56,019 bases of DNA from Bacillota bacterium (GTDB lineage: Bacteria > Bacillota > Clostridia > Christensenellales > Pumilibacteraceae): contig WQYM01000001.1 of NCBI GenBank assembly GCA_009781235.1, forward strand, positions 1 through 56,019, in the 5' to 3' direction. Position numbers and translations under genes: made by a program. Within the stretch, counting starts at the first letter, position 1, and each line of letters begins with the position of its first letter. Below are positions 252 through 55,880 of this stretch, in pieces. The notes below the pieces were generated by a model, which was given only the letters and a program-made list of their open reading frames with translations, was not told the DNA's origin and made no database searches.

Positions 252-265
252 TTGAGTCGGTAAAA

Positions 266-4343: not shown

Positions 4344-4360
4344 AATTTTTACCTCTTAAA

Positions 4361-9653: not shown

Positions 9654-9701
9654 AACTGCATTATACCCTATTGCCGCCGTCTTGTCAACGAATCCGCAGG
9701 A

Positions 9702-9732
9702 GCGAAAACAAAAAACGAAAACGAAAAACGAG
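9702..9732. repeat. CGAAAAC/CGAAAAA heptamer array
   Basis: GCGAAAACAAAAAACGAAAACGAAAAACGAG, the reverse complement of the array at 359-383. Confidence 0.6.
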
Positions 9733-9779
9733 GGATGGGATTGGGAAGCCGAAAAGCATGGGCGTCCGTAAACCCAACC

Positions 9780-9864
9780 GTAGGGGTCGCAAGTCCACTG
9801 TGCGGCCCGCACCTCATGAAAAAATTGATTCCGGCGGGTCGCACAGTGGACTTGCGACACCTAC
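9780..9864. repeat. REPIN-like doublet: GTAGGGGTCGCAAGTCCACTGTGCG ... CGCACAGTGGACTTGCGACACCTAC
   Basis: Two inverted palindromic units bounded by GTAGGGG and CCTAC. Confidence 0.8.
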
Positions 9865-22720: not shown

Positions 22721-22745
22721 TTTGTTCACCAATGATGTCGCGAAC

Positions 22746-22875
22746 AAAATTATAAAATATAAAATATTAAATATAAATTATGGATGAATATTTGAGTAAA
22801 ACAAGTGTTTTTGACAAATAACACGGCAATCAGCAGCCTAAATTTATATTATATATTTTATATTTTATATTTTTT
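22746..22875 (+). mobile_element. heptamer-armed hairpin element (ATAAAAT arms), gene-less copy
   Basis: The arms are 22746-22779 and 22840-22875. The core starts ATGGATGAATATTTGAGTAAAAC. It fills the dus-mazG intergenic gap. Confidence 0.75.
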
Positions 22876-22877
22876 GT

Positions 22878-23531
22878 TTATTGTTTGCCTTTTTCTTTCG
22901 TTTTTGCGTTGTTCCACATTCTCAACGCCTCTTCCGCATTCGCCGCCTTGTCGGAGCCGAACACGTGCGTGTGGCGCGACACAAGCTTTTTACAAAGCCG
23001 GTCGATTACGTCATATATGGTAAACTCGCCCGCGCGGCGCGCAATATCGCCGTGGAACACGCCCTGCAGCAGCACGTCCCCCGATTCCTCTAAGATGTTG
23101 TCGACGTCGTTTGCCTCTATGGCCGCAACAAGCTCGGCTGCTTCCTCCGTCGCGTTCTTCGCGATAGAGGCGTGCGTTTGCACCTGATCCCACGGGCAGC
23201 CGTCCGGCGCGGTGAGGCGCTCGGTGATGCGCACCAAATCCGCGAACCCGTAGCGCGGCTTTATAAAGCCGGATTGGGCGGGAATTATGGCCGAAAAGTC
23301 GCGGCCGTACCCCTGTTGCTTGTCCAGTTTTGATAACGCGACATGGCAAATTTCGGCATCCTCTCCGCTTTTTAGCGAAATTTCCAATCCGCCTGCATAG
23401 TGATTAAGTAACCACTTTTTTATGCGCGTCGCCCTCGACTTAGTGATTATGCCCGTAATCACCAACGTAACGGAGGTGTCCGGCTGAAAATCCGGCTCGA
23501 GCTTGCTTCCGGATGCAAAAATAACAGTCAT
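22878..23531 (-). CDS. mazG: MazG-family nucleoside triphosphate pyrophosphohydrolase (single MazG domain with N-terminal extension)
   Basis: EEAAELVAAIE and ESGDVLLQ motifs. Confidence 0.75.
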   Translation of the reverse strand: MTVIFASGSKLEPDFQPDTSVTLVITGIITKSRATRIKKWLLNHYAGGLEISLKSGEDAEICHVALSKLDKQQGYGRDFSAIIPAQSGFIKPRYGFADLVRITERLTAPDGCPWDQVQTHASIAKNATEEAAELVAAIEANDVDNILEESGDVLLQGVFHGDIARRAGEFTIYDVIDRLCKKLVSRHTHVFGSDKAANAEEALRMWNNAKTKEKGKQ

Positions 23532-26347: not shown

Positions 26348-26486
26348 TAGCGAATAGCGAATAGCGATGGATTATTTGTATTAGAATCAAAGTTTTATCG
26401 CAAAAAAATTGAAGTGTGCTACCTGCTTTTGATACTAACTAAGAATCATCCGAAGCTATTCGCTATTCGTTATTCGCTATTCGCTA
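26348..26486 (+). mobile_element. heptamer-armed hairpin element (TAGCGAA arms), gene-less copy
   Basis: The arms are 26348-26366 and 26455-26486. The core starts ATGGATTATTTGTATTAG. Confidence 0.8.
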
Positions 26487-32000: not shown

Positions 32001-32947
32001 TCGCTGTAAAAAACCTCGGTATTGGGGGGAATAAAAATGCGCTCTAATGCCTCTTTTGACGTTAAATCGAACGCGTCAAAGGCTTTAATGCTCTCGACTG
32101 TGTCGCCGAAAAATTCGACGCGCACGCCAGTTTCCCTATCCAGCGGAAACACGTCCAAAATATCGCCGCGCAAACTAAACTGTCCCCGCGCCGCCGCTAG
32201 GCTTTCGCGGCGGTAGCCCGACTGCACCAGCCGTTTTGCCAATTTCTGCGGGTCGTAGTCTTTCCCCGCTTCGATCGTGATAAAATGCGCCTCGAACTGT
32301 TCCCGCAGCGGAAACAACTGGCACACCGCCTCGACGGTGGTTACCACAATGCAAGTAGGATTTTGCACCGCCGCCGCCATCGCACTAAGCCTGGCCGCAT
32401 GGTTTTCGGATGAGCTTAAACGCCGATAGTTTAAAACGTCGTCCTTTGCGGGAAGGAGAATACAATTAGGAATGAGGAGTGAGGAATTAGGAATTGCGGA
32501 TGATTTTGATTCCGATTCCCCGTAGGGGTCGCCGTCCCCGGCGACCCGCCCATCCGATTCCCCGTAGGGGTCGCACGGCGTGCGACCCGCCCCCATGGGC
32601 GGCGATTGGCTCGTCAAACACAAAAACTGCTCGCACGCCCTTTTTGCCGCCAATTCGTCCGCGCAAACGTATATTGTGGGGGATAAAGCGTGGGGAGCAC
32701 CAATCCCCGTAGGGGCGGAGGGCCATCCGCCCGCAGTCCGTGCATTGCCCATATGTTCGGGCGGATTGCCATCCGCCCCCACAAAATTATTCTTTTCCCC
32801 GACCCATTCCCCATTCCCCAACTCCGCCGCCAAAACCGTTCGTGCGCCAAACGACAGCGAAAAAGCCGAGATATTTTTATCCCGGGCACTCTCGAGCAAT
32901 TTTTTTGCTTCTCCTTTAAATTCGATTGGGTGATTATTTGGGAGCAT
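29045..32947 (-). CDS. mfd: transcription-repair coupling factor Mfd carrying several in-frame repeat inserts (1300 aa)
   Basis: Walker A GDVGYGKTEVA, DEEQRFG box, RGRVGRS motif and a CarD-like region (VVHAYHGIG). The inserts are at 29451-29595, 31758-31943, 32465-32597 and 32691-32820. Confidence 0.95.
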   Translation of the reverse strand: MLPNNHPIEFKGEAKKLLESARDKNISAFSLSFGARTVLAAELGNGEWVGEKNNFVGADGNPPEHMGNARTAGGWPSAPTGIGAPHALSPTIYVCADELAAKRACEQFLCLTSQSPPMGAGRTPCDPYGESDGRVAGDGDPYGESESKSSAIPNSSLLIPNCILLPAKDDVLNYRRLSSSENHAARLSAMAAAVQNPTCIVVTTVEAVCQLFPLREQFEAHFITIEAGKDYDPQKLAKRLVQSGYRRESLAAARGQFSLRGDILDVFPLDRETGVRVEFFGDTVESIKAFDAFDLTSKEALERIFIPPNTEVFYSESEVDEILTRALAELDTREKVSGHKAQGTDKGDFAHPVPAPCALCPDTFTENFEPRPPSSEPRDADAYHTLRSHLTSDLTSGSHDMRLSFLMPLFNHCGFADFFKPARVIFDDAKQVADQLNLIYTEHENRYKAGLSKGEVLKSSIRQLAPKESALAFACPKLAFHAVDSQNRLFKPQVLFNFKSSLDFPAYHRDFNALADDVRAWMSNGYRVVIFCGSPAAQEKMTGFFASLRPFNTGGKGKLDVVAEKLIEGAIFHDEKLVLIGTKSIAPGGGQKKVIRRGKRDPFTEPAIGAYVVHAYHGIGFCESVTRLKLGGAERDYAVIRYAGGDTLYVPVENMDSLSAFGEGEAEPKLSKIGGAEFARVKERVKASVAKMAVDLTELYAVRAAAKGHQYPKNRELDDEFAAAFPYNETEDQLTATDECLKDLERGKVMDRLLCGDVGYGKTEVALRAAYKVIADGKQVAFLSPTTILARQHFNTVKNRMEPFGVNAVSLTRFDAPKEIAAALESLQNGRADIVCGTHRMLSKDVAFRDLGLLILDEEQRFGVADKEKIKSLKSDVNVLTLSATPIPRTLHFSLSHIRDISVLDTPPEQRLPIKTYVTEYAESLLADAVLRETGRGGQTFIVYNRVASIDKFAAQVKNMLGAEVRVAVAHGQMAAESLENTVEAFTAGKYGVLVASSIIENGIDMPNANTMVVIDADHFGLAQLYQLRGRVGRSNRLAHVYFTFDGHKVLTESAYQRLAAITEFTEFGSGFKIAMRDLEIRGAGNILGREQHGHIERVGYEMYARILAEAVAELGGWSEELGVRSEERWMDDNECTTRETQRTMSDEKEGSSSTVPHSSLLIPHSSGFLPDVKVTTDFNAFIPDDYIADKALRVRVYTRISQTASMDERKRLMAELKDIYGPIPHPTENLILIALLKNLAARLRAEGVTVKRAEAFVKFRKTADIPPSAARFKGAKIDPIASRVLFGADRAGMLKFLLG
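29451..29595 (-). mobile_element. heptamer-armed hairpin element (GAGTGAG/CCTCACT arms) in frame in mfd
   Basis: It is homologous to 6088-6232 in both arms and core, and is read in the same element frame (SEELGVRSEERWM...). Confidence 0.85.
31758..31847. repeat. two-array insert (2 x GGAGGTGAGGT(C) ... CGGGGTTCG-like) in mfd
   Basis: CCGGAGGTGAGGTCGGAGGTGAGGTGGG - core - CTCGGGGTTCGGAGCTCGGGGGACGGGGTTCGAAG. Confidence 0.6.
31859..31943 (+). mobile_element. short heptamer-armed hairpin (GGCACAA arms) in frame in mfd
   Basis: The 29-nt arms are 31859-31887 and 31915-31943 and are nearly perfectly complementary. The 27-nt loop contains CCGGATGAGCAAAATC. Confidence 0.85.
32465..32597 (+). mobile_element. 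composite insert in the mfd N-terminal domain: AGGAATT/GAGTGAG arm + GCGGATGATTTTGA core start + two GTAGGGGTCGC palindromes
   Basis: Read directly from the sequence. It is translated as QSPPMGAGRTPCDPYGESDGRVAGDGDPYGESESKSSAIPNSSLLIPN. Confidence 0.7.
32691..32820. repeat. REPIN-like doublet (GTAGGGGCGGAGGGCCATCCGCCC ... GGGCGGATTGCCATCCGCCCCC) plus CATTCCC repeats inside mfd
   Basis: It is the same unit family as 9907-10013. It is translated as NGEWVGEKNNFVGADGNPPEHMGNARTAGGWPSAPTGIGAPHALS. Confidence 0.7.
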
Positions 32948-44203: not shown

Positions 44204-44222
44204 CCGGGCAAAAGCGGTTCGC

Positions 44223-44264
44223 AAAAAAACGGCCCCGAAAAACAATGTTTTTCGGAGCCGTTTG
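44223..44264. terminator. intrinsic terminator
   Basis: AAAAAAACGGCCCCGAAAAACA-A-TGTTTTTCGGAGCCGTTT. Confidence 0.7.
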
Positions 44265-44303
44265 CCTTGCATGAATTTAACACTACCAAAACCTAAAATT
44301 TAC

Positions 44304-44357
44304 GCCGAAGGTGTAAAGCATGGGCAGCCCGGGGTGAGCGTAAGCGTAACAGCGGGG
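44304..44357. repeat. single half-copy of the GGGTAACCCGGGG palindrome family
   Basis: GCCGAAGGTGTAAAGCATGGGCAGCCCGGGGTGAGCGTAAGCGTAACAGCGGGG is homologous to the reverse complement of 51069-51120. Confidence 0.65.
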
Positions 44358-44387: not shown

Positions 44388-44458
44388 GTGACCCGGTCAA
44401 TGCGTGTCCCGTGACCCGGTCAATGCGTGTCCCGTGACCCGGTCACCGTGCACGGGAC
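44388..44458. repeat. 2.5 tandem copies of the 23-mer GTGACCCGGTCAATGCGTGTCCC ending in a hairpin
   Basis: The copies are 44388-44410, 44411-44433 and a partial copy at 44434-44458 (GTCCCGTG...CACGGGAC). Confidence 0.85.
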
Positions 44459-44484
44459 ATTATTCGCTTTTGACATTGCGTGTT

Positions 44485-44557
44485 CCGATGCCCTCGCTGG
44501 TCCGCACCGCATAGTCCGTGTCGATGACGGCGGGTCAGCGAGGGCATCGACCCCTAC
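44485..44557. repeat. REPIN-like doublet CCGATGCCCTCGCTGGTCCGC ... GCGGGTCAGCGAGGGCATCGACCCCTAC
   Basis: Inverted units. A related half-unit occurs in the DUF2130 tail (about 40497-40530). Confidence 0.75.
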
Positions 44558-44564
44558 GAGAATT

Positions 44565-44660
44565 CAGTTTTCAGTTTTCAGTTGTCGGTTGTCAGTTGAA
44601 AGAAGATGGATTTGTATCCTGTCCCCCGAGCCCCGAATCCCGAACCCCGAACCCCGAAAA
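44565..44660 (+). mobile_element. two-array element ((CAGTTTT/CAGTTGT)n - GAAAGAAGATGGATTTG - (CCCCGAA)n)
   Basis: The arrays are 44565-44597 and 44623-44660. It ends 8 nt from the stop of the acyl-CoA synthetase gene. Confidence 0.75.
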
Positions 44661-44667
44661 TCGCCCC

Positions 44668-46332
44668 CTACGCCGTTACAATGCCCGCCGCTTTTTCTAA
44701 GCCAAGCTCCTTGACCGCCTGCTCGCGCAGCAAGTACTTTTGAATCTTGCCGCTGGCGGTTTTGGGAAAGTCGTCGATAAACAGCACCTTAGCGGGCATC
44801 TTGTGCTTGGCTAAATTGTTGCCGACGTATTTTTTGATATCGTCCTCCGTCGCCTTTTTCCCATGCTTCAAAATAACGAACGCGCAGGCTTCCTCGCCGT
44901 AGGTTTTGGACGGAATCGAAACGACCGCGACGTCGGAAACGCTCGGGTGCGTGTAGATAAAGTCCTCGATTTCCTTGGGGGAAATGTTTTCGCCGCCACG
45001 GATAATCATGTCCTTGATGCGCCCCGTGATTTTATAGTAGCCGTCCTCATCGACCCGCGCCAAATCCCCGGTGTGCAGCCAGCAGTCGGAATCGATGGCC
45101 GCGGCCGTCGATTCGGGCAATTTGTAGTAGCCTTTCATTACGTTGTAGCCGCGCACGCAAAACTCGCCGTCCACGCCGGGCGGCACTTCTTTTCCCGTTT
45201 CCGGGTCGATTATTTTGCATTCCATGTGCGGCAAAGCGCGGCCCACCGTGTTGACGCGCTTCTCTAAAGAGTCGTCGGTCGTCGTTTGCGTACACCCGGG
45301 GGACGCCTCGGTTTGGCCGAATACGATGGTAATCTCGCGCATGTTCATCTTGTCCGCGACGTCCTGCATCACTTTTACCGGACAGGGGCTGCCGGCCATG
45401 ATGCCGGTACGCAAAGAAGAGTAATCGTATTTGGCAAAATCACGGTGCTCCAAAATCCCGATAAACATCGTGGGCACGCCGTGCACCGCCGTCGCTTTCT
45501 CGTACTCGATGACGTGCATGACCTTCATCGGCGTGTACCACAATAGCGGCAGCATCGTCGCGCCGTGCGTAACGGAAGCCATAATCGCCAAAACGAGCCC
45601 AAAGCAATGGAAAAACGGCACCGGGATGCACAAACGGTCGTTTTCCGTGAACTTCATGCAATCGCCGATGCTAAGGCCGTTGTTGACGAGGTTTTTATGC
45701 GTCAGCATCACGCCCTTCGGGAATCCCGTGGTACCGGAGGTGTACTGCATGTTGATTACGTCGTCGGGGTCAAGGCTTGCTTTCCGTTTTTCAAATTCGC
45801 ATTCGGAAACCAAAATGGCAAAGTTCTCAATATCGTTCCAATGATACATCCCATCGTAACGGTTATCAAACGAAACAACGGTTTTGAGCATCGGCAGCTT
45901 TTTAGATTTCAGCTCGCCCTTTTTGCAATTTTTTAACTCCGGGCAAATCGAATAGATGATTTTCTCGCAGTCAATGTCTTTGAGCCCGTCACACACAAAA
46001 AGCGCTTTAGCGTCCGATTGCGCTAATAAAAACTCCAGCTCGTTTTCCTTATAGCTGGTGTTGACCGTCACCAAAACGACGCCGATGCGCGCGGTGGCAA
46101 ACAACAACACCAGCCATTGCGGATAGTTGGTCGCCCACACCGCGGCGTGGTCGCCCTTTTTAAAACCCATGCCCATAAGGCCCTTTGCGATACTGTCCAC
46201 CTTTTGGTTAAACTCGTAATAGGTTTTGTCAAACTTCATTTCGATGTATTTTACCGCCTGATGCGTGGGGAATTTGCGCGCGGTTTCCTCGAGCATTTGC
46301 CCGACGGTAATGTTTTTGAGGGGGGTGGTCAT
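44668..46332 (-). CDS. AMP-forming acyl-CoA synthetase
   Basis: YTSGTTGFPKGV AMP-binding motif and a C-terminal ...GKIQKY. GGAG RBS. Confidence 0.9.
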   Translation of the reverse strand: MTTPLKNITVGQMLEETARKFPTHQAVKYIEMKFDKTYYEFNQKVDSIAKGLMGMGFKKGDHAAVWATNYPQWLVLLFATARIGVVLVTVNTSYKENELEFLLAQSDAKALFVCDGLKDIDCEKIIYSICPELKNCKKGELKSKKLPMLKTVVSFDNRYDGMYHWNDIENFAILVSECEFEKRKASLDPDDVINMQYTSGTTGFPKGVMLTHKNLVNNGLSIGDCMKFTENDRLCIPVPFFHCFGLVLAIMASVTHGATMLPLLWYTPMKVMHVIEYEKATAVHGVPTMFIGILEHRDFAKYDYSSLRTGIMAGSPCPVKVMQDVADKMNMREITIVFGQTEASPGCTQTTTDDSLEKRVNTVGRALPHMECKIIDPETGKEVPPGVDGEFCVRGYNVMKGYYKLPESTAAAIDSDCWLHTGDLARVDEDGYYKITGRIKDMIIRGGENISPKEIEDFIYTHPSVSDVAVVSIPSKTYGEEACAFVILKHGKKATEDDIKKYVGNNLAKHKMPAKVLFIDDFPKTASGKIQKYLLREQAVKELGLEKAAGIVTA

Positions 46333-46370
46333 TGTGGGAACTCCTTATATCGTGCGTTAGAGCTTTTATT

Positions 46371-46720
46371 AGTGCAGTAGTGCAATAGTGCAATAGTGCA
46401 ATAGTGCAGTAGTGATGGTTTCTATTCTGTCGTTGTATTTTTAGATAGCAAATAAAATCTTGTTTATTTCTGCACAACCTCTTTTTATGTCATAATACGA
46501 TTGGGCATCTATATATCCCGTCGCATACAGTAGCTCAATCCAATACTCACACTCCGTCGCTTCTTTTAAAGCAATACCAATCTTATTCGCAAAGTCTCTC
46601 TTGCTAACCGCGCGATTTGCTTCAAATACATTTGCGCCGACACTCGTTCCGGAACGTACAAGTTGTTATTGTCACTCACTTTTCATCCTCCACTACTGCA
46701 CTACTGCACTATTGCACTAG
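46371..46720 (-). mobile_element. heptamer-armed element (AGTGCAG/GCACTAC arms) carrying a truncated four-helix-bundle gene
   Basis: The arms are 46371-46414 and 46691-46720 and are complementary. On the minus strand the interior starts GAGGATGAAAAGTGAGTGA (RBS, ATG, 3 codons, stop). Confidence 0.8.
46441..46665 (-). pseudogene. N-terminally truncated four-helix-bundle (23S rRNA IVS-protein family) gene
   Basis: My own translation is QLVRSGTSVGANVFEANRAVSKRDFANKIGIALKEATECEYWIELLYATGYIDAQSYYDIKRGCAEINKILFAI*. It matches the family pattern RSxTSIGANxxEA...SKxDFxxKxxIALKEAxETxYWLxLL. Confidence 0.75.
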
Positions 46721-47778
46721 ATTTTGTACGTCCACCCGAACTTGTCGAGTTCCCTTCCCCACTGCAAACCCGTCAGCATATCATACAACTCTTGCGTAGT
46801 TTTGCCGATTTGTCTGCCGTTTACGGTGTAGGACTTGCCAAGGTGAAAAAATTCGCCAATCGGCGAAATCACCGCCGCCGTGCCCGTGCCGAAGGCTTCC
46901 TCTAACGTGCCGGCGCCGTGCGCCGCGATAATCTCGTCAAACGAAACGGGGCGCTCGGTCACCTTGATGCCGGACGCACGCAAAAGCTCGATGCAGGAGG
47001 AGCGGGTGATGCCGGGCAGGATAGAGCCGGAGAGCTCGGGGGTGACGACTTCGCCCGCGATTTTAAACATCACGTTCATCGCGCCGACTTCTTCGATGTA
47101 TTTGCGGTTCACCCCGTCGAGCCATAGCACCTGGGCGCACTTTTCGCCGATGGCGCGCTTTCCGGCACGCAAACTCGCCGCGTAATTGCCGCCGCATTTG
47201 GTGTATCCGGTGCCGCCCTTGACCGCGCGCACGTCGTCGCATTCGACCATGATGCGCACGGGGCTAAGCCCGCCCGCATAGTAGGCGCCGACCGGCGATC
47301 CAATCAGCATAAATACCGCGGAATCCACTGGATGCACGCCCAAAAACTCGTCGTTGCCGAATAGGTACGGGCGCAAATAGAGGGAGGTTCCGGGTAAAGA
47401 CGGCACCCAATCTTGCTCAAGCCGCACGAATTCGGTGAGGATTTGCATAAAATCTGCCTCCGGAACCGTCGGCAGGCACATACGCTCACACGATACGTTC
47501 ATGCGCTTGGCGTTTTCTTGGGGACGGAATAGTTGAATCCCGCCGTCTTTTGTCCGGTATGCCTTGAGCCCCTCGAACACCTCCGCACCGTAGTGCAGCA
47601 CGGTGGACGCCGGGTGAATCAAAAAAGGCGCAAACGGCACGATACGGGGGTTGACCCACTTGCCCGACGTATATTCGGATACGAACATGTGGTCGGAAAA
47701 GAACTTGCCAAAGCCGAGTACTTCCGGATTGGGCTTTTCTTTGGGGGCGGATGTTTTTGTGATTGTTATGTTTAACAT
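46717..47778 (-). CDS. ilvE: branched-chain amino acid aminotransferase
   Basis: Class IV aminotransferase pattern: EGLKAYR and GGTGYTKCGGNYAASL. GGAG RBS. The TAG stop lies in the element arm. Confidence 0.9.
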   Translation of the reverse strand: MLNITITKTSAPKEKPNPEVLGFGKFFSDHMFVSEYTSGKWVNPRIVPFAPFLIHPASTVLHYGAEVFEGLKAYRTKDGGIQLFRPQENAKRMNVSCERMCLPTVPEADFMQILTEFVRLEQDWVPSLPGTSLYLRPYLFGNDEFLGVHPVDSAVFMLIGSPVGAYYAGGLSPVRIMVECDDVRAVKGGTGYTKCGGNYAASLRAGKRAIGEKCAQVLWLDGVNRKYIEEVGAMNVMFKIAGEVVTPELSGSILPGITRSSCIELLRASGIKVTERPVSFDEIIAAHGAGTLEEAFGTGTAAVISPIGEFFHLGKSYTVNGRQIGKTTQELYDMLTGLQWGRELDKFGWTYKI

Positions 47779-47889
47779 GGTGACTCCTTTTTCACTTAAA
47801 ACTTAAAAATGAAAACTTAAAAATGTTGAATGATTATGGATAAGGAGACAAAAAACATCCTCCATTTTTCAGTTTTAAGTTTTAAGTTT

Positions 47890-48411
47890 TCATTGACTCT
47901 TCCCTATCCTAAACGCCTTCATATTCAGCTCAATCATGTCCGCGCGCTTGGCGGAAATGGCTTTTACGAGGGCGGCTTTGACGGTTTCTTCGTCCTCCGC
48001 CGCCAAAACCTTGCCCATCATGATGATGTTGGCTAGGCTTGCCATTCCGTTATCGGAGGCCAATTGCGTTGCCGGCACGTACACGGCGCAGACGTCGGCG
48101 CGGTTCACTTTGCGGCCGATCAGCGTGGAATCGACAAAAATGGTGCTGCCGGGCTTTGCCGCAGACTCGAACTTATCGAGCGAGGGCAAATTCAGCGCAA
48201 CCAACACGTCGGAAGCGTTGACAATGGGCGAACCGACCGGATCGTCCGAAATAATTACCGAGCAATTCGCGGTTCCGCCGCGCATCTCCGGGCCGTAGGA
48301 TGGCAGCCAACTGACCTGTTTGCCCTTGGTCAGCCCTAAATACGCTAAAAATTTACCGGCGAACAATACGCCTTGGCCGCCGAACCCGGCGAGTAGGTAT
48401 TGGGTAGTCAT
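47890..48411 (-). CDS. 2-oxoacid:ferredoxin oxidoreductase gamma subunit
   Basis: The N-terminus carries GFGGQGV. The start was trimmed to ATG 48411, which has a GGAG RBS. Confidence 0.85.
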   Translation of the reverse strand: MTTQYLLAGFGGQGVLFAGKFLAYLGLTKGKQVSWLPSYGPEMRGGTANCSVIISDDPVGSPIVNASDVLVALNLPSLDKFESAAKPGSTIFVDSTLIGRKVNRADVCAVYVPATQLASDNGMASLANIIMMGKVLAAEDEETVKAALVKAISAKRADMIELNMKAFRIGKSQ

Positions 48412-48463
48412 GGTGATAATCTCCTTTTTCAATACGATAATCAATCCTTAGTGCACTATTGCA

Positions 48464-49210
48464 CTATTGCACTTTACTGCGGTCTTTGTACACTCCCACC
48501 GGGTAATACGGCAACATTTTTTCCTCTAACCACTTTAGGGCGGCCGTCGGGGCGAGGCCCCAGTTGGTGGTGCAGGTGGAAAGCACCTCGATTAGAGAAA
48601 AGCCTTTGTTGTTTACTTGGTTTTCGAACGCCTTTTTAATCGCCTTTTTGGCGCTACGCACGAATTTAACGTTGTGGACGGAAACGCGCTCCAAATACTC
48701 CGGGCCGTCTAACGTTGCCAGCATTTCGCACACTTTTATCGGGTAACCGCAAAGCGAGGGGTTGCGGCCGTAGGGAGAGGTCTGCGTGACTTGGCCCGGG
48801 AGGCTGGTGGGCGCCATTTGGCCGCCCGTCATGCCGTAAATCGTGTTGTTGATAAAAATAATCGTGATATTTTCGCCCCGCGCCGCCGCGTGCACGGTTT
48901 CCGCCATGCCGATGGACGCCAAATCGCCGTCGCCCTGATAGGTAAAGACGATGTTGTTAGGGTCGGCGCGTTTAATGCCCGTGGCCACCGCCGGAGCCCG
49001 ACCGTGCGCAGCTTGCGCCATATCAAAATTGTAGTACTCATAAATGAGCACCGCGCAGCCGACCGGCGCGACGCCGATTGTTTTGCCCTCGATACCGAGT
49101 TCGTCCACGGCTTCGGCTACAAGGCGATGCACGATGCCGTGCGTACAGCCCGGGCAATAGTGCAGGGGCACGTTTGAGAGGGATTTGGGTTTTTCAAAAA
49201 CTGTTTTCAT
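48464..49210 (-). CDS. 2-oxoacid:ferredoxin oxidoreductase beta (TPP-binding) subunit
   Basis: YCPGCTHG and YQGDGD motifs. The start was trimmed to ATG 49210 (MKTVFEKP), which has a GGAG RBS. The longer ORF runs into the repeat arm. Confidence 0.9.
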   Translation of the reverse strand: MKTVFEKPKSLSNVPLHYCPGCTHGIVHRLVAEAVDELGIEGKTIGVAPVGCAVLIYEYYNFDMAQAAHGRAPAVATGIKRADPNNIVFTYQGDGDLASIGMAETVHAAARGENITIIFINNTIYGMTGGQMAPTSLPGQVTQTSPYGRNPSLCGYPIKVCEMLATLDGPEYLERVSVHNVKFVRSAKKAIKKAFENQVNNKGFSLIEVLSTCTTNWGLAPTAALKWLEEKMLPYYPVGVYKDRSKVQ

Positions 49211-49228
49211 AGAATAATCTCCATTTTG

Positions 49229-49399
49229 AATGATAAATGATAAATTATAAATGATAAATGTCGGATGGGTTGACTTCCGGAACAAAAGAATTACGCTCTT
49301 TCACAAGCATACAACATCAATAATTTATCATTTATCATTTATCATTTATCATTTGTCTATCATTTATCATTTATCATTTATCATTTATCATTTATCATT
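49229..49399 (+). mobile_element. heptamer-armed hairpin element (ATGATAA/TTATCAT arms) between the alpha and beta subunit genes
   Basis: The arms are 49229-49260 and 49324-49399. The core starts TCGGATGGGTTGACTTCCGGAACAAAAGAA. The right arm encodes the last residues and the stop of the alpha subunit. Confidence 0.85.
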
Positions 49400-50442
49400 A
49401 ACTCTTCTATCTTCCCCACCACTTCCTCCGGCGACGGGATGACGCCGCCCGAACGGCAAACCAGGTGAATGGGCTTAGAAAATTCGGTGGCGAGCTTTAC
49501 GTCCTCAATCATTTGGCCCATCGAGCACTCGACGCAAATAAACGCCTTAACCTTTTTTGCCGCGGCTTTTAATGCGGCATCGGGGAACGGCCATAGGGTG
49601 ACCGGGCGGATTAGGCCTACCTTTATTCCCTTGGCGCGCGCCGCATTCACCGCGCTGCGCGCCACGCGCGAGGATATCCCGAAGCCGACCACGCAAATTT
49701 CTGCGTCGTCCATAAGATACTCTTCGCACATTACCTCGTTTTGCTCGGCCGCTTTATAGCGTTCATAGCGCGCGAGGATTTTTTGTTCCAGCTTTTCCGC
49801 CACCAGATGTAGCGAGTTTACAACATTCTTGGGGCGCGCGCATTTCGTCCCCGTCAACGCCCACGGTTTTTCAAAAACCTGCTGCTGCGGAAAATCGAGC
49901 GAAACGGGCTCCATCATCTGCCCGAGCGTTCCGTCGGAGAGAATCATCACCGGCGTTAAGTACCGGTCGGCGAGTTCAAACGCCTTGACCGTCAAGCTTG
50001 CCATTTCCTGCACCGACGCGGGCGCCAGCACGATGAGCTTATAGTCGCCGTGCCCGCCGCCCTTGACGGCCTGAAAATAGTCGGCCTGCGAAGGCTGAAT
50101 GCCGCCTAAGCCCGGCCCGCCGCGCTGGATGTTGACGATAACGGCAGGCAAATCCGCGCCCGCCGCGTAAGAAATGCCCTCGGCCTTCAGCGAAATGCCG
50201 GGGCTTGACGAGCTGGTCATCACCCTCTTGCCCGCGCCTGCGACGCCGTACACCATATTGATGGCGGCCACCTCGCTTTCGGCCTGCAAAAATACGCCGC
50301 CGACTTTTGGCATGCGCTTAGACATATACGCGCCGATTTCGTTTTGCGGCGTGATGGGATAGCCGAAATAGTGCCGGCATCCCGCCGCGATGGCGGCCTC
50401 GGCAATGGCTTCGTTGCCTTTCATGAGTACTTTATCGCTCAT
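49381..50442 (-). CDS. 2-oxoacid:ferredoxin oxidoreductase alpha subunit
   Basis: MKGNEAIAEAAIAAGCRHYFGYPITPQNE pattern. GGAG RBS. The C-terminal MINDK* is encoded by repeat units. Confidence 0.9.
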   Translation of the reverse strand: MSDKVLMKGNEAIAEAAIAAGCRHYFGYPITPQNEIGAYMSKRMPKVGGVFLQAESEVAAINMVYGVAGAGKRVMTSSSSPGISLKAEGISYAAGADLPAVIVNIQRGGPGLGGIQPSQADYFQAVKGGGHGDYKLIVLAPASVQEMASLTVKAFELADRYLTPVMILSDGTLGQMMEPVSLDFPQQQVFEKPWALTGTKCARPKNVVNSLHLVAEKLEQKILARYERYKAAEQNEVMCEEYLMDDAEICVVGFGISSRVARSAVNAARAKGIKVGLIRPVTLWPFPDAALKAAAKKVKAFICVECSMGQMIEDVKLATEFSKPIHLVCRSGGVIPSPEEVVGKIEELMINDK

Positions 50443-50477
50443 TGAATATCTCTCCTTATAAACGTGACGGGCAGCAC

Positions 50478-50631
50478 ATTTACAATTTACGATTTAAAAT
50501 TTACAAATTAGGGATAAGTGTTTTTCGGTTTAAAAGCAAAGTTCTTTTGTTCCGGGCACTCTTATCGGGCTGCCGCAAAAAATCCGTCAATAGTTTGTAA
50601 ATTGTAAATCGTAAATCGTAAATCGTAAATT
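50478..50631 (-). mobile_element. heptamer-armed hairpin element (ATTTACG arms), gene-less copy
   Basis: The arms are 50478-50509 and 50594-50631. The reverse complement of the core aligns with the core of 118-251 (shared CCGGAACAAAAGAAC, CGGAT and TATCCCT). Confidence 0.8.
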
Positions 50632-50657
50632 GGCCACGACCGTTTTTGGTAATTCGA

Positions 50658-50864
50658 CTATTTTTGGACACTGATCACGCAATCAGGGCACATCGTCGCA
50701 CAAAAAGCGCACGAAATACACAGCTCTTCGTCCAACACGACCGCCGGGTGGTGGCCTTTTGCGTTAATCGCGTGTTTTGCGATCCCGATAATTTTTTTCG
50801 GGCACGCCTCGATGCACAGGCCGCAGCCCTTGCATAAATCCGTTTGAATGATTACTTTTGACAT
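50658..50864 (-). CDS. 2 x [4Fe-4S] ferredoxin-type delta subunit
   Basis: CKGCGLCIEACP and CISCAFCATMCP. Confidence 0.88.
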   Translation of the reverse strand: MSKVIIQTDLCKGCGLCIEACPKKIIGIAKHAINAKGHHPAVVLDEELCISCAFCATMCPDCVISVQK

Positions 50865-50897
50865 GTGGTTATACCTCTCTAAAATCTTTCAACCTCT

Positions 50898-51125
50898 CCG
50901 CACCGGAGGTGCGGAATGTGGGTAACCCGGGGTTAAGCGTAGCGCAACCCCGGGTGAAGGAAAACGCCCTCTCTTGCGCACCGTAGGTGCGCGACCGGTG
51001 GTATGTTTTGTTGCTTACCGGATTTCGGGTCGCGCACCTACGGCGCGCAAGGCCGCCGTTCGACCGCGCCCCGGGTTACGCTACGCTCACCCGGGGTTAC
51101 CCACATTATACGCCTTCGGCGCATT
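50898..51125. repeat. about 230-nt compound palindrome (outer GGGTAACCCGGGG... arms, inner GCGCACCGTAGGTGCGC units)
   Basis: The outer arms are 50916-50954 and 51069-51106. The inner units are 50974-50996 and 51028-51050. Flanking hairpins are CCGCACC-GGA-GGTGCGG and GCC-TTC-GGC. Confidence 0.8.
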
Positions 51126-51172
51126 GTAAGGTTTGGCGCTACGAAGCACCGAAGGTATAATTCCTAGGGCAT

Positions 51173-51474
51173 AAAAAAATCCCCACGCAAAACACGTAGG
51201 GACGAATTTTTTATCCGCGGTACCACCCAAATTGACGCATCGCTTTTACAGCGAAACATCCGACTCATTCGACCGATAACGGAGTCAACCCGGATTTGCT
51301 TACTGACCCTCTTGCAGACCGACGATGGCATCGGCCCCTACAAAAACTGTTCGGCAATCTGCTAAAAAAGGGAGAAATCCTAAGAACTTTGCACCGCCTT
51401 TCACCAAGCAGCGGCTCTCTTTGGCTAAAATAACAAAGGATTTATGGCTTTTGTCAAGCGCATTTGATATTGTG
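51173..51474 (-). promoter_or_regulatory. T-box riboswitch leader
   Basis: Minus-strand motifs in order: AGAGAG (51415-51420), GGTGAAA (51399-51405), AGTA, F-box CCGTTA (51277-51282), T-box TTTGGGTGGTACCGCGG (51215-51231), then the terminator TCCCTACG-TGTTTTG-CGTGGGGATTTTTTT (51173-51203). Confidence 0.8.
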
Positions 51475-51480
51475 AATACA

Positions 51481-51509
51481 ATATTACACTGAATTTTTAG
51501 ATTTGTCAA
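51481..51509 (-). promoter_or_regulatory. sigma70-type promoter of the T-box leader
   Basis: On the minus strand: TTGACA - 17 nt - TAATAT. Confidence 0.65.
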
Positions 51510-51535: not shown

Positions 51536-51766
51536 CTAGTCAATTAAATCTTCAAAAGAACAATTAAAAAAATCCATGAGCAAGCATATTTTCGTTAAAG
51601 TCGGTTCACTTTCGCCTCTTAGCCAAGCAGACACTGTTGTTTGATCAACTGAAACTTTCGATGCCAATACTGTTTGACTTATATTATTATCATTCATAAA
51701 TGCTTTCAAGTTTTCGATGAACGCCCGTTGATAGTCTTTCATGTAACTTATTATAGGGAAAAGCAC
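51536..51766 (-). CDS. XRE-family HTH protein
   Basis: ISQTVLASKVSVDQTTVSAWLRGESEP helix-turn-helix. The start is uncertain (GTG 51766 or ATG 51742). Confidence 0.7.
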   Translation of the reverse strand: MLFPIISYMKDYQRAFIENLKAFMNDNNISQTVLASKVSVDQTTVSAWLRGESEPTLTKICLLMDFFNCSFEDLID

Positions 51767-52489: not shown

Positions 52490-53245
52490 TTACCCGAATC
52501 TTCCCGTAATATAATCGTTTGTCCTCTTGTCTTTCGGGGCCGAGAAGACCGACGAGCAGACGCCTTCCTCGATGAGGTCGCCTTTCAGCATAAACGCAAC
52601 GCGGTCGGAGACGCGCACCGCCTGCTGGGTGTTGTGCGGCGCGAGGATTACGGTAAGGCGGGATTTTAATTGCGTCAGGGCTTCCTCGATTTTTGCCGTA
52701 GAGATGGGGTCGAGCCCCGAACACGGGCGGTCTAATAATATTACCTCCGGGTCAAGCGCCAAAACCGTGGCGATGCACAGTCGCTGCTGCTGGCCGCCGG
52801 AAAGCGAGCCGGAGGGCAGCTTTAGCCGGTCGTTTACCTCGTCCCACAGCGCGGCCGTCGTCAACGCTTTTTCCACTATTTCTGAAAGCTTTTGCTTGTT
52901 TTTGATGCCGCTGCGGCGCGGGCCGTAAGAGACAAAATCGAAAATCGACAACGGAAGCGGCCGGGGGATGTCGAACACCATGCCCACTTTACGCCGCAGC
53001 TCCGTTACCACGCAGTCCGGAGCAAAAATATTTTCGCCGTTCAACAAAATCTCGCCCGTGTGGCGCGCCTCATGGTTTAGGTCGCACAGGCGGTTTATCG
53101 AGCGCAGCAACGTGGAAATCCCGCTGTTGGCAGGACCGATTACCGCCAAAATGGCGTTAGACTCGACCGTCAAGTTCAAATTCTTGATGACTTGCTTGTC
53201 GCCGTAGTAGAAGTTGAAATCTTTGATAACTATTTTAGGCATCAT
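52490..53245 (-). CDS. pstB: PstB-like phosphate ABC ATPase with degenerate catalytic motifs
   Basis: It is collinear with PstB (FYYG, LSGGQQQRLCIA, DYITGRFG). However Walker A reads GPANSGIS (no Lys) and Walker B reads ILLDRPCSGLD (Glu to Arg). The start was trimmed to ATG 53245. Confidence 0.85.
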   Translation of the reverse strand: MMPKIVIKDFNFYYGDKQVIKNLNLTVESNAILAVIGPANSGISTLLRSINRLCDLNHEARHTGEILLNGENIFAPDCVVTELRRKVGMVFDIPRPLPLSIFDFVSYGPRRSGIKNKQKLSEIVEKALTTAALWDEVNDRLKLPSGSLSGGQQQRLCIATVLALDPEVILLDRPCSGLDPISTAKIEEALTQLKSRLTVILAPHNTQQAVRVSDRVAFMLKGDLIEEGVCSSVFSAPKDKRTNDYITGRFG

Positions 53246-53291
53246 TGTGTGAGTCAATCTCCATTTGCAAAACATTGGCATTCGGTATCGT

Positions 53292-53736
53292 CGGGGTTCG
53301 GGGTTCGGGATTCGGAATTCGAAATTAGTTTTATGTATCAAGTTTTTTAATTAAGGCGTTTATCATTTGACCGATTCGGGCTACAAGACACAAGCAATCC
53401 TCAATATCAGTATCTGACAAATATCCTACATCTACACAAAGAAGACATTGAGTCTCCAGCTCGCAACTTGAGCTTCTTGATATGGCTAAAAACTGAATGT
53501 ATTCTTTCGTTGAGTTTCTAGAATGCCCTTCTGCAATATTCGACGGTATAGATACCGCGGCACGACACATTTGGCTTGTTAATCCGTATTGTTCGTTGCG
53601 CGGCAACCTCTTTGTAAGCAAATATACTCTTTTTACAAGTTCTCTACTTACTTGCCAAACTTCAAGCTCCTTGTAGTTTTTTATCACTTCTGAATCTCCC
53701 TAAATTCGAATCCCGAATCCCGAACCCCGAACCCCG
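53292..53736 (-). mobile_element. heptamer-armed element (GGGGTTC/CCCCGAA arms) carrying an intact four-helix-bundle gene
   Basis: The arms are 53292-53326 and 53702-53736, with 24 perfectly complementary bp plus a partial extension. It fills the pstA-pstB gap and ends 2 nt from the pstCA stop. Confidence 0.85.
53331..53687 (-). CDS. four-helix-bundle protein (23S rRNA intervening-sequence protein family)
   Basis: YKELEVWQ, YGLTSQMCRAAVSIPSNIAEGHSR, EYIQFLAISRSS..ELETQ. GTG start with an AGGGAGA RBS. Confidence 0.88.
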   Translation of the reverse strand: MIKNYKELEVWQVSRELVKRVYLLTKRLPRNEQYGLTSQMCRAAVSIPSNIAEGHSRNSTKEYIQFLAISRSSSCELETQCLLCVDVGYLSDTDIEDCLCLVARIGQMINALIKKLDT

Positions 53737-53738
53737 AC

Positions 53739-55880
53739 TTACCCCGCCTTCAAAAGCCTCTTCTTGCCCTTTTTGGTCGCCCGCGCATCGCGCCCCACAA
53801 AGCGGTTAAGAAGCGCGTTGAAACCAACGTTGATAATTAAAATTAAAATGATTAAGAGCGCGGCGGTTCCGTACGCCTTTTCCATCGAAATCCCCTCGTC
53901 CGCAAGGATAAAGAAATGGCTCGCCATCGTTCGCATCCTTAGCGCGGAGCCCGCCGTCAAAATGACGGCGGCGGTCTCGGCAACGCAGCGGCCGATTCCC
54001 AAAATTACGCCGTTCACAATGCCCCGAAGCGCCGTCGGGAACACCGCGTACAAAACCGTTTGCCACTTAGACGCGCCCAAACTAAAACTCGTTTCACGAT
54101 AGGAGTTCGGCACGGTTTTTATCGCCTCCTCAGACGTGCGGATGACGGTGGGCAATACCATAATCGCAAGCGTCAGCCCGCCGGACAGTGCGGAGAAGCC
54201 GAAAGCGGAAACAAATATGATGAAGCCGAACAACCCGTATACGATCGAGGGGATGCCCGCCAGCGACTCTACGGAAAAGCGGATGACGCGGGTCCAAATG
54301 TTCTCTTTTGTGTATTCCGCCAAATAAAACGCCGAACCTATGCCGAACGGTATTGATATAAGGAGCGCAAGCCCCGTAACCACAAACGTACTGACTATGG
54401 TGGCCGCAACGCCGCCCTCGCGCCCCATATCGCGCGGGTTTTGGGTGAGGAATTCCCAAGTAAGCTCGGGTACGCCCATAATCAAAAGATATACAATAAT
54501 CGCTATCAAAACCGCTAACACTAATACTGCGGCCGCCCAAATGATAACTTTAGCTGCCCTTTGCGTCGCGCGCGGGCTGGCGCGACGGCCGGCCTTATCG
54601 CCGGACGAAATTAAGGGCTGGGGGCGCGGCGGGCCTTGCGGCGCGGATTGCAACTGTGACGCCGAAATCTGCGGGGCGCCCGATGGGCCGCCCCCTACAA
54701 CGGCGGGGGCAAGGCCGCGCCCTACGGTTCCCGCATCCGCGTTTACATTTTGCGAAATCCCCGCGGTTTCCGTATCCGCATTTGTAGTTTGCGGATTGTA
54801 ATTTGTGATTTGCGCTTCCGGAGGCACTCCTCCGGCAACCGCGACCGCTAAGCTCGGCTTCTTTTTCCTCTTTTTCGCCGCCCCTTTCAGCTTATCGCGG
54901 GTAATATATTGGGCAATGCTGTTAATGAGCATGATAATCACAAACAACACGACGCCCGTCGCAAAAAGCGCCTGCTGGTGCTTACCCTCGGCATACCCCA
55001 TCTCAAGCCCGATATTGGTCGTCAAGGTACGCATCGGCGCCAAAATCGATTCGGGAAAAGCGGTTGCATTGCCGAGCACCATAATAACTGCCATCGTCTC
55101 GCCCACGGCGCGGCCGACGCCCAAAATAATGGAGGCGATGATGCCGGACTTTGCCGCCGGGATTTGGACGCGCCATATCGATTGCCATTGCGTCATCCCC
55201 AGTGCCAGCGCGCCCTCCTTATAGGGCTTCGGGAGCGACAGCAACGCGACCTCCGAAATGCTGATGACGGTGGGCAAAATCATAATCGCCAAAACGACGG
55301 AGCCCGCAAGCATACTAAGCCCCGGTCCGCCGATGAATTCACGGATAAAGGGGACGACAAAGATAAGGCCCACAAAGCCGTAGACCACCGACGGGATGCC
55401 GGCCAACAACTGAATCGCGGGGCGAAACGCGTTGCGGACTTTGTCCGGAGCGAATTCCGCCAAAAATATCGCGCAAGCCACCCCGATCGGGACGCCGATC
55501 ACAATCGCGCCCAACGTGACGAACAGGGTGCCTACGATCATGGGCAATATGCCGAATCCCCCTTTGGTGGGCGACCACTTAGAGCCGAACAAAAAGTCCC
55601 ACAGGCTGACCTCGCCAAAAAAGCCGGCTGCTTGCACGATAATAAATATGGTAATGAGCGCAAGCGCGGAAAGCGCGGAAAGCGCAAGCAAAAAGAAAAT
55701 GCGCCCGCTCAATTTCTCCTTAAACTTTCGGAAGCCTCCGGCGGGTTTTGTCGTTTGACCCGTCTCCGCCTTTTCGATGCCCACCGATTTAAGGTCTTGG
55801 CGCAGGGAAGAAACAAGCATGGCGACAAACGCCGCGCCGATAAGGCCTATGATTACCCACATCCACCATAATTTCATCAT
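53739..55880 (-). CDS. PstC-PstA fusion permease (713 aa) joined by a low-complexity, repeat-containing linker
   Basis: There are two permease halves, each with an EAA-like loop (first half EGALALGMTQWQSIWRVQIPAAKSGI; second half ETSFSLGASKWQTVLYAVFPTALRGI). The linker is at about 54569-54875. Confidence 0.85.
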   Translation of the reverse strand: MMKLWWMWVIIGLIGAAFVAMLVSSLRQDLKSVGIEKAETGQTTKPAGGFRKFKEKLSGRIFFLLALSALSALALITIFIIVQAAGFFGEVSLWDFLFGSKWSPTKGGFGILPMIVGTLFVTLGAIVIGVPIGVACAIFLAEFAPDKVRNAFRPAIQLLAGIPSVVYGFVGLIFVVPFIREFIGGPGLSMLAGSVVLAIMILPTVISISEVALLSLPKPYKEGALALGMTQWQSIWRVQIPAAKSGIIASIILGVGRAVGETMAVIMVLGNATAFPESILAPMRTLTTNIGLEMGYAEGKHQQALFATGVVLFVIIMLINSIAQYITRDKLKGAAKKRKKKPSLAVAVAGGVPPEAQITNYNPQTTNADTETAGISQNVNADAGTVGRGLAPAVVGGGPSGAPQISASQLQSAPQGPPRPQPLISSGDKAGRRASPRATQRAAKVIIWAAAVLVLAVLIAIIVYLLIMGVPELTWEFLTQNPRDMGREGGVAATIVSTFVVTGLALLISIPFGIGSAFYLAEYTKENIWTRVIRFSVESLAGIPSIVYGLFGFIIFVSAFGFSALSGGLTLAIMVLPTVIRTSEEAIKTVPNSYRETSFSLGASKWQTVLYAVFPTALRGIVNGVILGIGRCVAETAAVILTAGSALRMRTMASHFFILADEGISMEKAYGTAALLIILILIINVGFNALLNRFVGRDARATKKGKKRLLKAG

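Follow-up and report, generated by a model that had tools for sequence, protein, structure and literature searches.

A T-box leader with a probable leucine specifier ahead of a VorB-type oxidoreductase, IlvE and acyl-CoA ligase operon: a possible route for isovalerate salvage in uncultured Clostridia

Results

The first 56,019 nucleotides of contig WQYM01000001.1 (Bacillota bacterium, family Pumilibacteraceae, GenBank assembly GCA_009781235.1), the whole of which was analysed and is called the window in the following, carry on the minus strand a T-box leader and behind it six genes for the delta, alpha, beta and gamma subunits of a 2-oxoacid:ferredoxin oxidoreductase, a branched-chain aminotransferase (IlvE) and an adenosine monophosphate (AMP)-forming acyl-CoA ligase (Table 1). 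This composition had been proposed from the letters and their open reading frames (ORFs) alone (the original prediction), and both Pfam and NCBIfam agree with it. The starts of two genes were revised by reading the sequence (ATG at 49210 for beta and at 48411 for gamma), and a good ribosome-binding site is retained by every gene of the operon. The alpha subunit reaches 540.7 bits with the VorB model NF005507, for which the cutoff is 399, and 327 and 261 bits with the 2-oxoacid/2-oxoglutarate alpha models PRK08659 and PRK09627, both under their cutoffs. IlvE passes two equivalog cutoffs (NF009897, 452.9 bits against 307; TIGR01123, 377.4 against 250). The ligase matches the Pfam domains AMP-binding and AMP-binding_C with 327.5 and 75.5 bits and has PRK12583 as its best NCBIfam match (738 bits, cutoff 832), no named subfamily being reached. 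A search of the PDB returned no near relative of alpha or of the ligase able to decide the substrate, and the next-best matches of alpha were 2-oxoacid or 2-oxoglutarate enzymes. The closest homologues of alpha, 74–79% identical, come from metagenome contigs and from metagenome-assembled genomes (MAGs) of Acutalibacteraceae, Oscillospiraceae and Clostridia and are named VorB by NCBI; those of the ligase are 77–92% identical and lie on JGI metagenome contigs. The remainder of the window has genes for glycoside hydrolases, UxaC, FtsH, Mfd, Dus and Pst proteins. Further genes of branched-chain amino acid metabolism were not found in it, nor a second ligase, a LeuA-like or a TIM-barrel gene, and a tRNA gene search of the window gave no match.

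The promoter and the ordered T-box motifs with a U-run terminator, all read by eye in the original prediction, are found at their places on the minus strand. In Stem I the strand AAAAG (51452-51448) pairs with CUUUU (51370-51366) as the lower stem, and a variant kink-turn (K-turn) is formed by UUGAC on the 5' side and UUAGC (51365-51361) on the 3' side. The AG bulge AGAGAG lies at 51420-51415, GGTGAAA at 51405-51399, and the distal loop reads UGGUGAAA. Further downstream we located AGTA within CAGTAAGC at about 51305, the F-box CCGTTA at 51282-51277 and the T-box sequence AATTTGGGTGGTACCGCGG (RNA AAUUUGGGUGGUACCGCGG), with an antiterminator bulge UGGU that is complementary to the tRNA 3' end ACCA. 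The 5' arm of the leader terminator overlaps the 3' side of the antiterminator, so that the two structures are mutually exclusive. The Stem II region contains a lineage-specific insert carrying GTAGGGGCCGATGCCATCG, which by eye resembles a repeat at about 44555-44535.

In order to compare the locus with its relatives, 80 genome loci around alpha homologues were fetched and their genes and T-boxes typed (labels of the form L081 denote relatives' loci). The original prediction had named the lack of an RF00230 hit as evidence against itself; a scan of the 56-kb window at the Rfam gathering thresholds gave indeed zero matches (the gathering score of RF00230 is 93 in Rfam 15), whereas the E-value search aligned the leader to model positions 1-219 of 219 with 79.5 bits (E-value 2.8e-17 in the local search, 1.3e-15 for the whole window), well outside what chance would give. 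Orthologous leaders scored 86.5 (L081), 122.7 (L027) and 130.6 bits (L106), and the T-boxes of the same gene neighbourhood in relatives range from 76.5 to 130.6 bits, straddling the gathering score. The T-box element is real, a default pipeline would overlook this leader, and by itself the leader is an ordinary T-box.

The specifier is very probably the leucine codon CUC, followed by C51371. In an unanchored alignment of the whole leader with the leaders of eight relatives, the window's GGAUUU-CUC-C-CUUUU-UUAGCAG stands opposite AAAGU-CUC-R-UUCC-GGAGCAG, and in about 30 related Leu T-box leaders the codon opposite its CUC is CUC or CUG. The orthologous leader of L081, whose alpha subunit is 79% identical, reads GAUUU-CUC-C-CUUC-CUAGCAG, with GAAG/CUUC as an unambiguous lower stem of 4 bp. 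Among the Leu leaders nine complementary lower-stem pairs were found (GGAA/UUCC, GGAG/CUCC, AGAG/CUCU, AGGG/CCCU, GAGG/CCUC, AAAG/CUUU, GCGA/UCGC, GCGG/CCGU and, in the window, AAAAG/CUUUU), and this covariation fixes the codon register. RNAalifold on a MAFFT alignment of Stem I recovered the distal helix alone and, given such weak folding results, the lower-stem register was taken from explicit pairing tables. At 24 nt from the distal loop, the window's CUC falls into the range of 22-31 nt seen for the codon in 100 parsed T-boxes, and the Rfam alignments of high-scoring relatives place CUC at the model's codon positions with a purine next. CUC would be read by tRNA-Leu(GAG).

Leucine had been the amino acid preferred in the original prediction, which was right in this respect but had put the codon at the wrong position, as CUU within AAAGUUCUUA (GUUCUUA, 51381-51390), with GUU (Val) as alternative register. 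AAAGUUCUUA forms a bulge on the 3' side further up Stem I, at a distance of just 14 nt to the distal loop. Both CUU and GUU were rejected on spacing and homology; judged by the same comparisons the valine alternative is excluded. Two further registers, UCU from the literal Rfam alignment and UCC with a 4-bp lower stem, are disfavoured by the L081 stem together with the 5-bp pairing AAAAG/CUUUU.

Between the leader terminator and the ribosome-binding site of delta lies a G+C-rich nested palindrome of about 280 nt, which folds at -173.5 kcal/mol (z -12.4), has no U-run after it and is related to a palindrome arm at 44303-44342, downstream of the ligase. The distance from the T-box sequence to the delta start codon amounts to 351 nt in the window, and in L081 about 25 nt separate the terminator's U-run from that codon. 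Both leaders are co-linear in the alignment, the window having about 287 extra nt before delta and about 40 in the Stem II region, and the long spacing is due to the extra block before delta. A site scan found no promoter-like or terminator-like site on the minus strand between the leader terminator and delta. Despite diverged flanks the window and L081 agree fully in the core T-box motifs, in the specifier and in the terminator, which argues for continued selection, and from this comparison we conclude that the T-box should still control the operon.

Among 91 leaders of the relatives the specifiers were AUC (42), GUA, GUC or GUG (32) and CUC (six, plus two more CUC assigned by eye); these counts exclude a relaxed parse, in which codons were shifted by one base and which was used for gene order alone. 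Usually the genes are laid out in separate units. An Ile T-box (AUC) precedes a first ligase, and a Val T-box (GUA, GUC or GUG) precedes a second ligase, a ParA-like gene, delta-alpha-beta-gamma and ilvE. A third unit is frequent, in which a Leu T-box (CUC) precedes genes for a LeuA-like protein, for an AP_endonuc_2 TIM barrel and for an orthologue of the window's ligase. The oxidoreductase-IlvE cassette of some genomes comes immediately after the Ile T-box. Altogether Ile, Val or Leu T-boxes, ilvE and ligases for short acids accompany the oxidoreductase in more than 50 loci, and in these sequences it depends on the lineage which branched-chain T-box precedes the oxidoreductase-IlvE core.

The first and second ligases are HTH_19-Cupin_2-AMP-ligase fusions of 755-808 aa, which gene callers also predict as one protein, and their best NCBIfam match is MbcS, the methylbutyryl-CoA synthetase of Staphylococcus aureus (about 440 bits, under the cutoff). 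Ile- and Val-linked ligases are 71% identical between the classes and 74-76% within them, the nearest neighbour being of the same class in 71 of 76 cases. Scanning metagenomes with the window's ligase gave 61 loci, 18 of them with a T-box directly upstream of the ligase (53-72% identity), and all of these T-boxes are leucine-specific (16 CUC, two CUG). Together with eight genome loci the family of the window's ligase stands behind Leu T-boxes without exception among the parsed cases. In this collection the three ligase groups sort strictly by specifier.

The variant with a Leu T-box immediately before delta is seen in the window and in L081, and the window is the sole locus seen in which the Leu-linked ligase closes the oxidoreductase operon. 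L082 has the order delta-alpha-beta-gamma-ligase without ilvE, and no T-box was detected there. L115 encodes the closest ligase (92% identity) in the order gamma-ilvE-ligase; with an unrelated subtilase gene upstream it is uninformative on the leader. The Leu T-box unit of LeuA-like gene, AP_endonuc_2 (xylose-isomerase-like) gene and ligase is found at L027 10793-14694 and in L012, L016, L029, L032, L046, L052, L106 and L108, on Firmicutes-like contigs. A single ORF of L027 encodes both TIM barrel and ligase, and in L093 an enoyl-CoA hydratase gene follows the ligase. Fusion ligases are located at L026 1176-3443 and 3722-6103, L027 3663-6089, L081 4527-6794 and L082 5005-7296. To our knowledge the combination of an XRE-type helix-turn-helix (HTH) domain, a cupin and an MbcS-like AMP-ligase is not a known architecture, and it suggests a second, protein-based sensing layer. 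A small HTH gene upstream of the window's operon (51536-51766) was considered in this context and shows no relationship to the HTH-cupin domain of these fusion ligases.

Discussion

In a T-box the antiterminator is stabilised by an uncharged tRNA that base-pairs both to the specifier and to the UGGN bulge. The reading that we favour, and hold for rather probable, is that the Leu T-box and the six genes form a leucine-starvation-induced salvage of isovalerate. Uncharged tRNA-Leu would stabilise the antiterminator and transcription would continue through the 280-nt palindrome into the genes. The AMP-forming ligase would convert isovalerate to isovaleryl-CoA, the VorB-type oxidoreductase would use reduced ferredoxin for the reductive carboxylation of isovaleryl-CoA to 4-methyl-2-oxopentanoate (2-oxoisocaproate), and IlvE would transaminate the latter to leucine. 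Isovalerate as the substrate of the ligase is inferred from the exclusive link of its orthologues to Leu T-boxes, and the action of the oxidoreductase on branched-chain 2-oxoacids and acyl-CoAs is predicted from the genomic context. Induction by uncharged tRNA-Leu fits leucine supply and not consumption, and an AMP-forming ligase, being an activation enzyme, also counts for the anabolic direction. The anabolic role in branched-chain amino acid supply, as put forward originally, is likely and is strengthened by the associations of T-boxes, cassette and ligases in the relatives; the earlier reading is supported in its core and corrected in detail.

Extended to the relatives, this would describe a modular assimilation of branched short-chain acids in uncultured gut- and rumen-type Clostridia, with a shared VorB-type oxidoreductase and IlvE and with ligases wired to tRNAs, namely 2-methylbutyrate to Ile, isobutyrate to Val and isovalerate to Leu. 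The window would be a streamlined leucine-only version, and the family of its ligase might be the long-missing isovalerate-CoA ligase of anaerobes. We regard this wider scheme as about as likely as not.

Several observations weigh against the proposed leucine salvage or against the T-box assignment on which it builds. With 79.5 bits the leader stays below the gathering score of 93, because of the 40-nt insert and the poorly aligned specifier loop. The Rfam alignment of that loop has low posterior probability and its literal reading is UCU; the base after the codon is C and not a purine, and a C after the codon is also frequent following AUC in the Ile leaders of the clade. The 3' strand of the K-turn is UUAGC and not NGAGC, so the usual G is missing, and Stem I alone folds no better than shuffled sequences (minimum free energy z 0.13). 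On the side of the enzymes, alpha alone passes a cutoff, and beta, gamma and delta match 2-oxoacid or 2-oxoglutarate NCBIfam models below their cutoffs; JGI names the alpha homologues 2-oxoglutarate oxidoreductase alpha subunit. Elsewhere the Leu-linked ligase adjoins a TIM-barrel, LeuA-like, amidohydrolase or enoyl-CoA hydratase gene and not the oxidoreductase, so its substrate could be another leucine-related acid. Finally, the view of the host's leucine genes is limited to the 56-kb window.

Among the alternatives we first consider an operon built on a multi-substrate core, whose ligase would not be specific for isovalerate. The same oxidoreductase-IlvE cassette stands under Val T-boxes here and Ile T-boxes there, the window lacks a second ligase, and Wels et al. 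reason likewise for T-box-controlled branched-chain amino acid transporters (PMC2494555). Yet the ligase families split by specifier, the MbcS-like fusions going with Ile and Val and the window's family with Leu only, which suggests specific ligases, and other ligases may be encoded elsewhere in the genome; we consider this alternative unlikely.

Another possibility is an operon for supplying membrane fatty acid synthesis with branched acyl-CoA primers, in which IlvE and the oxidoreductase would run oxidatively from leucine and the ligase would scavenge isovalerate like MbcS of S. aureus. MbcS-type ligases do serve branched-chain fatty acid synthesis in S. aureus (PMC10026030 and PMC11167679), and a Bacteroides fragilis mutant in a related multi-subunit oxidoreductase is rescued by oleate or Tween 80 (PMC11304471). 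A switch that responds to uncharged tRNA-Leu would in this case drain leucine when it is scarce, known T-box targets are genes for aminoacyl-tRNA synthetases, amino acid biosynthesis and amino acid transport (PMC3766115), and the window's ligase lies outside the MbcS family (25% identity), so that a role in primer supply appears very unlikely.

The T-box could also be a relic which the 280-nt palindrome has uncoupled from the genes, these using another promoter or separate processing. The 351 nt between T-box sequence and delta with their strong hairpin, the 40-nt insert in Stem II and the score below the Rfam threshold would agree with it, but the inserted block has no promoter-like site on the minus strand, the core motifs, specifier and terminator stayed intact and identical to L081 while the flanks diverged, and 48 of 887 T-boxes are located 300-480 nt from the start codon (Wels et al., PMC2494555). 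A relic is quite improbable in our opinion.

Hardly to be expected is a 2-oxoglutarate or pyruvate synthase that serves glutamate or general carbon supply, or an oxidative Stickland-type catabolism of leucine, since the JGI label, the next-best NCBIfam and PDB matches of the oxidoreductase and the best match of delta (OGOR_delta, below its cutoff) face an alpha subunit that passes the VorB cutoff alone, a cassette tied to IlvE, to ligases of the short branched-acid type and to Ile, Val and Leu T-boxes in dozens of genomes, a leucine starvation signal that would not induce catabolism, and an AMP-forming ligase where leucine catabolism is expected to proceed via ADP-forming or kinase routes.

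It is long established that fibre-degrading anaerobes of rumen and gut require branched short-chain acids or assimilate them; the genes and their control are poorly defined. For rumen microbes the formation of leucine from isovalerate via carboxylation and amination has been described (PMC7356843), and the rumen methanogen Methanobrevibacter ruminantium makes isoleucine from 2-methylbutyrate (PMC2812497). In rumen anaerobes, isovalerate, isobutyrate and 2-methylbutyrate are carboxylated reductively on the way to Leu, Val and Ile (Allison and co-workers, as summed up in these two papers), the same chemistry that we propose, and the relatives of the window's genes come from MAGs of rumen, caecum and gut Clostridia. 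That route is known as physiology and labelling data, and in the literature searched no assignment to a gene or a regulator was found.

Regarding the enzyme, an anabolic synthase of Methanothermobacter converts isobutyryl-CoA plus CO2 to 2-oxoisovalerate (Tersteegen et al. 1997, as quoted in PMC3087415). VorABC of Methanothermobacter is a carboxylating 2-oxoacid:ferredoxin oxidoreductase with thiamine pyrophosphate (TPP) and Fe-S clusters, and the window's alpha passes the VorB model. The archaeal enzyme has three subunits including fused ones and, unlike the window's, is not known to be associated with a riboswitch, with ilvE or with a ligase. Descriptions of Vor are so far limited to archaea, and bacterial Vor enzymes are hardly studied (PMC7238569). 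A multi-subunit 'Kor2' oxidoreductase of B. fragilis with an essential function, the loss of which oleate rescues (PMC11304471), is only a lead, as a possible relative.

As a switch the leader has its nearest precedent in the ilv-leu leader of Bacillus subtilis, also a Leu T-box with CUC, which by transcription antitermination turns on the supply of branched-chain amino acids when tRNA-Leu is uncharged (Marta, Ladner and Grandoni 1996, as cited in PMC5794164 and PMC2494555). According to the same sources it controls the de novo genes ilvBHC-leuABCD, whereas a ferredoxin oxidoreductase, IlvE and an acyl-CoA ligase are found in the window, whose leader, unlike that of B. subtilis, has two lineage-specific insertions and a variant 3' K-turn strand. 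Related are also the operons behind Val and Ile T-boxes in Oscillospirales-like MAGs (L026, L027, L081 and others), with the same delta-alpha-beta-gamma-ilvE cassette (alpha 61-79% identical) and the same mode of control. Most of them have an HTH-cupin-AMP-ligase fusion and a ParA-like gene between T-box and delta and keep the Leu-linked ligase in a separate unit, whereas the window has one Leu unit that includes the ligase. MbcS of S. aureus is AMP-forming and activates short branched-chain acids, as we propose for the window's ligase; it supplies primers for fatty acids and is not known to be under T-box control (PMC10026030). With 25% identity to MbcS-like ligases, the one of the window falls on a different branch of this family.

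Ferredoxin oxidoreductases and acyl-CoA ligases are unmentioned among the targets in the T-box surveys PMC2494555 and PMC3766115. None of the literature searched describes an oxidoreductase or ligase operon under T-box control, and an earlier mention in reviews outside this search is possible. The regulated pathway and the scheme of specifier-coded ligases would be the novel part, the switch itself being standard. If the wider scheme is true, it would be the first genetic and regulatory assignment of a reductive-carboxylation route known physiologically since the 1960s. The specifier codon would label each ligase with its product amino acid and turn physiology into testable genes, and the T-box regulon would widen from de novo synthesis, transport and tRNA charging to ferredoxin-driven salvage. 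It would also provide markers for the use of branched short-chain acids in metagenomes of animals on supplements of these acids.

Repeats and further features of the window

Table 1. Positions of the operon, its leader and the associated repeats in the window (strand of the feature in the third column).
Feature	Position	Strand	Basis or remark
Sigma-70-type promoter TTGACA-17-TAATAT	51481..51509	-	read in sequence; consensus scan, 10/12 positions
T-box leader (Stem I, Stem II region, F-box, Stem III, antiterminator)	51195..51467	-	RF00230; orthologous to the L081 Leu T-box
Stem I	51361..51460	-	covariance model and comparison with related leaders
Specifier CUC (very probably Leu), then C51371	51372..51374	-	homology, lower-stem covariation, spacing
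Lineage-specific insert of ~40 nt in the Stem II region, carrying GTAGGGGCCGATGCCATCG	51310..51348	-	insertion against the Rfam model; absent from L081
T-box sequence AATTTGGGTGGTACCGCGG (RNA AAUUUGGGUGGUACCGCGG)	51215..51233	-	read in sequence and RF00230; invariant between window and L081
Leader intrinsic terminator, hairpin 51203-51179, then seven U	51172..51203	-	sequence and folding
G+C-rich nested palindrome, ~280 nt, between leader terminator and delta ribosome-binding site	50885..51165	-	absent from the L081 junction
Delta subunit, 68 aa, two [4Fe-4S] motifs	50658..50864	-	Pfam Fer4 x2; ribosome-binding site GAGAGG
Inverted tandem heptamers ATTTACA / GTAAATC, delta-alpha gap	50478..50632	-	repeat search
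Alpha subunit, 353 aa, VorB family	49381..50442	-	NF005507, POR_N, PFOR_II
Inverted tandem heptamers AATGATA / ATTTATC, alpha-beta gap	49227..49401	-	repeat search
Beta subunit, 248 aa, TPP motif GDGD-X-NN, four Cys	48464..49210	-	Pfam TPP_enzyme_C; motif and Cys by reading
Single octamer-repeat arm AGTGCAAT, beta-gamma junction, overlapping the beta stop codon	48441..48481	-	repeat search
Gamma subunit, 173 aa	47890..48411	-	Pfam POR
Inverted tandem heptamers ACTTAAA, gamma-ilvE gap	47794..47894	-	hairpin -26.4 kcal/mol, z -3.8
IlvE type II, class IV, 353 aa	46717..47778	-	NF009897, TIGR01123, Pfam Aminotran_4
Inverted octamers TAGTGCAA enclosing a 23S_rRNA_IVP pseudogene, ilvE-ligase gap	46368..46719	-	repeat search
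AMP-forming acyl-CoA ligase, 554 aa, candidate isovalerate-CoA ligase	44668..46332	-	Pfam AMP-binding and AMP-binding_C
Operon-end intrinsic terminator, then seven U	44222..44265	-	-31.7 kcal/mol, z -6.2
Inverted repeat pairs of the window	119-258, 4357-4518, 6086-6232, 8937-9028, 22747-22886, 26348-26486, 29448-29603		window
Inverted repeat pairs of the window, continued	31864-31938, 46368-46719, 47794-47894, 49227-49401, 50478-50632, 53291-53737		window

Repeat elements had been noticed in the first three intergenic gaps of the operon; they are present there but are not limited to these, as repeats occupy all five intercistronic gaps as well as the leader and the 3' untranslated region (UTR). 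The gaps are up to about 385 nt long in the window compared to 10-40 nt in relatives, an unusual expansion of the operon. In most gaps of the window, tandem heptamers or octamers stand in inverted pairs that differ from one another in their unit, and the beta-gamma gap has a single octamer arm. The final codons (about five) and the stop codon of alpha are supplied by the heptamer repeat, and the last codons and the stop codon of beta are repeat-derived as well. According to folding, long hairpins would arise from the repeat pairs in the polycistronic mRNA. In the ilvE-ligase gap the octamer arms enclose a truncated pseudogene of the four-helix-bundle protein 23S_rRNA_IVP (46444-46662, minus strand; PF05635, 67 bits, profile positions 36-105 of 106), an arrangement that resembles an rRNA intervening sequence, and the same gap of L115 contains an inverted repeat pair of this type with a different unit (ACGCACA). 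Before the operon-end terminator the 3' UTR has about 400 nt of repeats, with heptamers at 44564-44658, a 23-mer tandem at 44388-44445 and a palindrome arm at 44303-44342.

In the 56 kb at least 13 inverted pairs of heptamers, sometimes octamers, were counted, filling most intergenic gaps. In-frame arrays are also present in ORFs, namely in Mfd (29045-32947; arrays 29448-29603 and 31864-31938), in the ORF 5353-7239 (6086-6232), in an M20 peptidase ORF (8472-9860; 8937-9028) and in the Dus ORF (21698-22747; 21891-21991). The three inverted pairs measured in Mfd and in the ORF 5353-7239 are 147, 156 and 75 nt long, all divisible by 3, and in Mfd as in an unrelated ORF a GAGTGAG/TCCTCAC element is translated to the near-identical peptide SEELGVRSEERWM...PHSS. 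Judged by these sequences the in-frame arrays look like a mobile palindromic element inserting in frame, which we take to be reminiscent of the palindromic elements of Rickettsia.

G+C-rich nested palindromes, similar to repetitive extragenic palindromic (REP) sequences or miniature inverted-repeat transposable elements (MITE), occur at 50885-51165 and 44303-44342, and a shorter repeat GTAGGGGYCGATGCCMTCG of the Stem II region of the T-box (about 51310-51348) is found again in the 3' UTR (about 44470-44555). Upstream of pstB (52490-53341) a 713-aa ORF (53739-55880, minus strand) matches both the PstC and the PstA permease and is apparently a fusion. Finally, a protein of 1148 aa of glycoside hydrolase family 3 (12626-16072, minus strand) shows a permuted order of its Pfam domains, with Glyco_hydro_3_C at residues 105-391 and Glyco_hydro_3, the N-terminal domain, at 838-1003.

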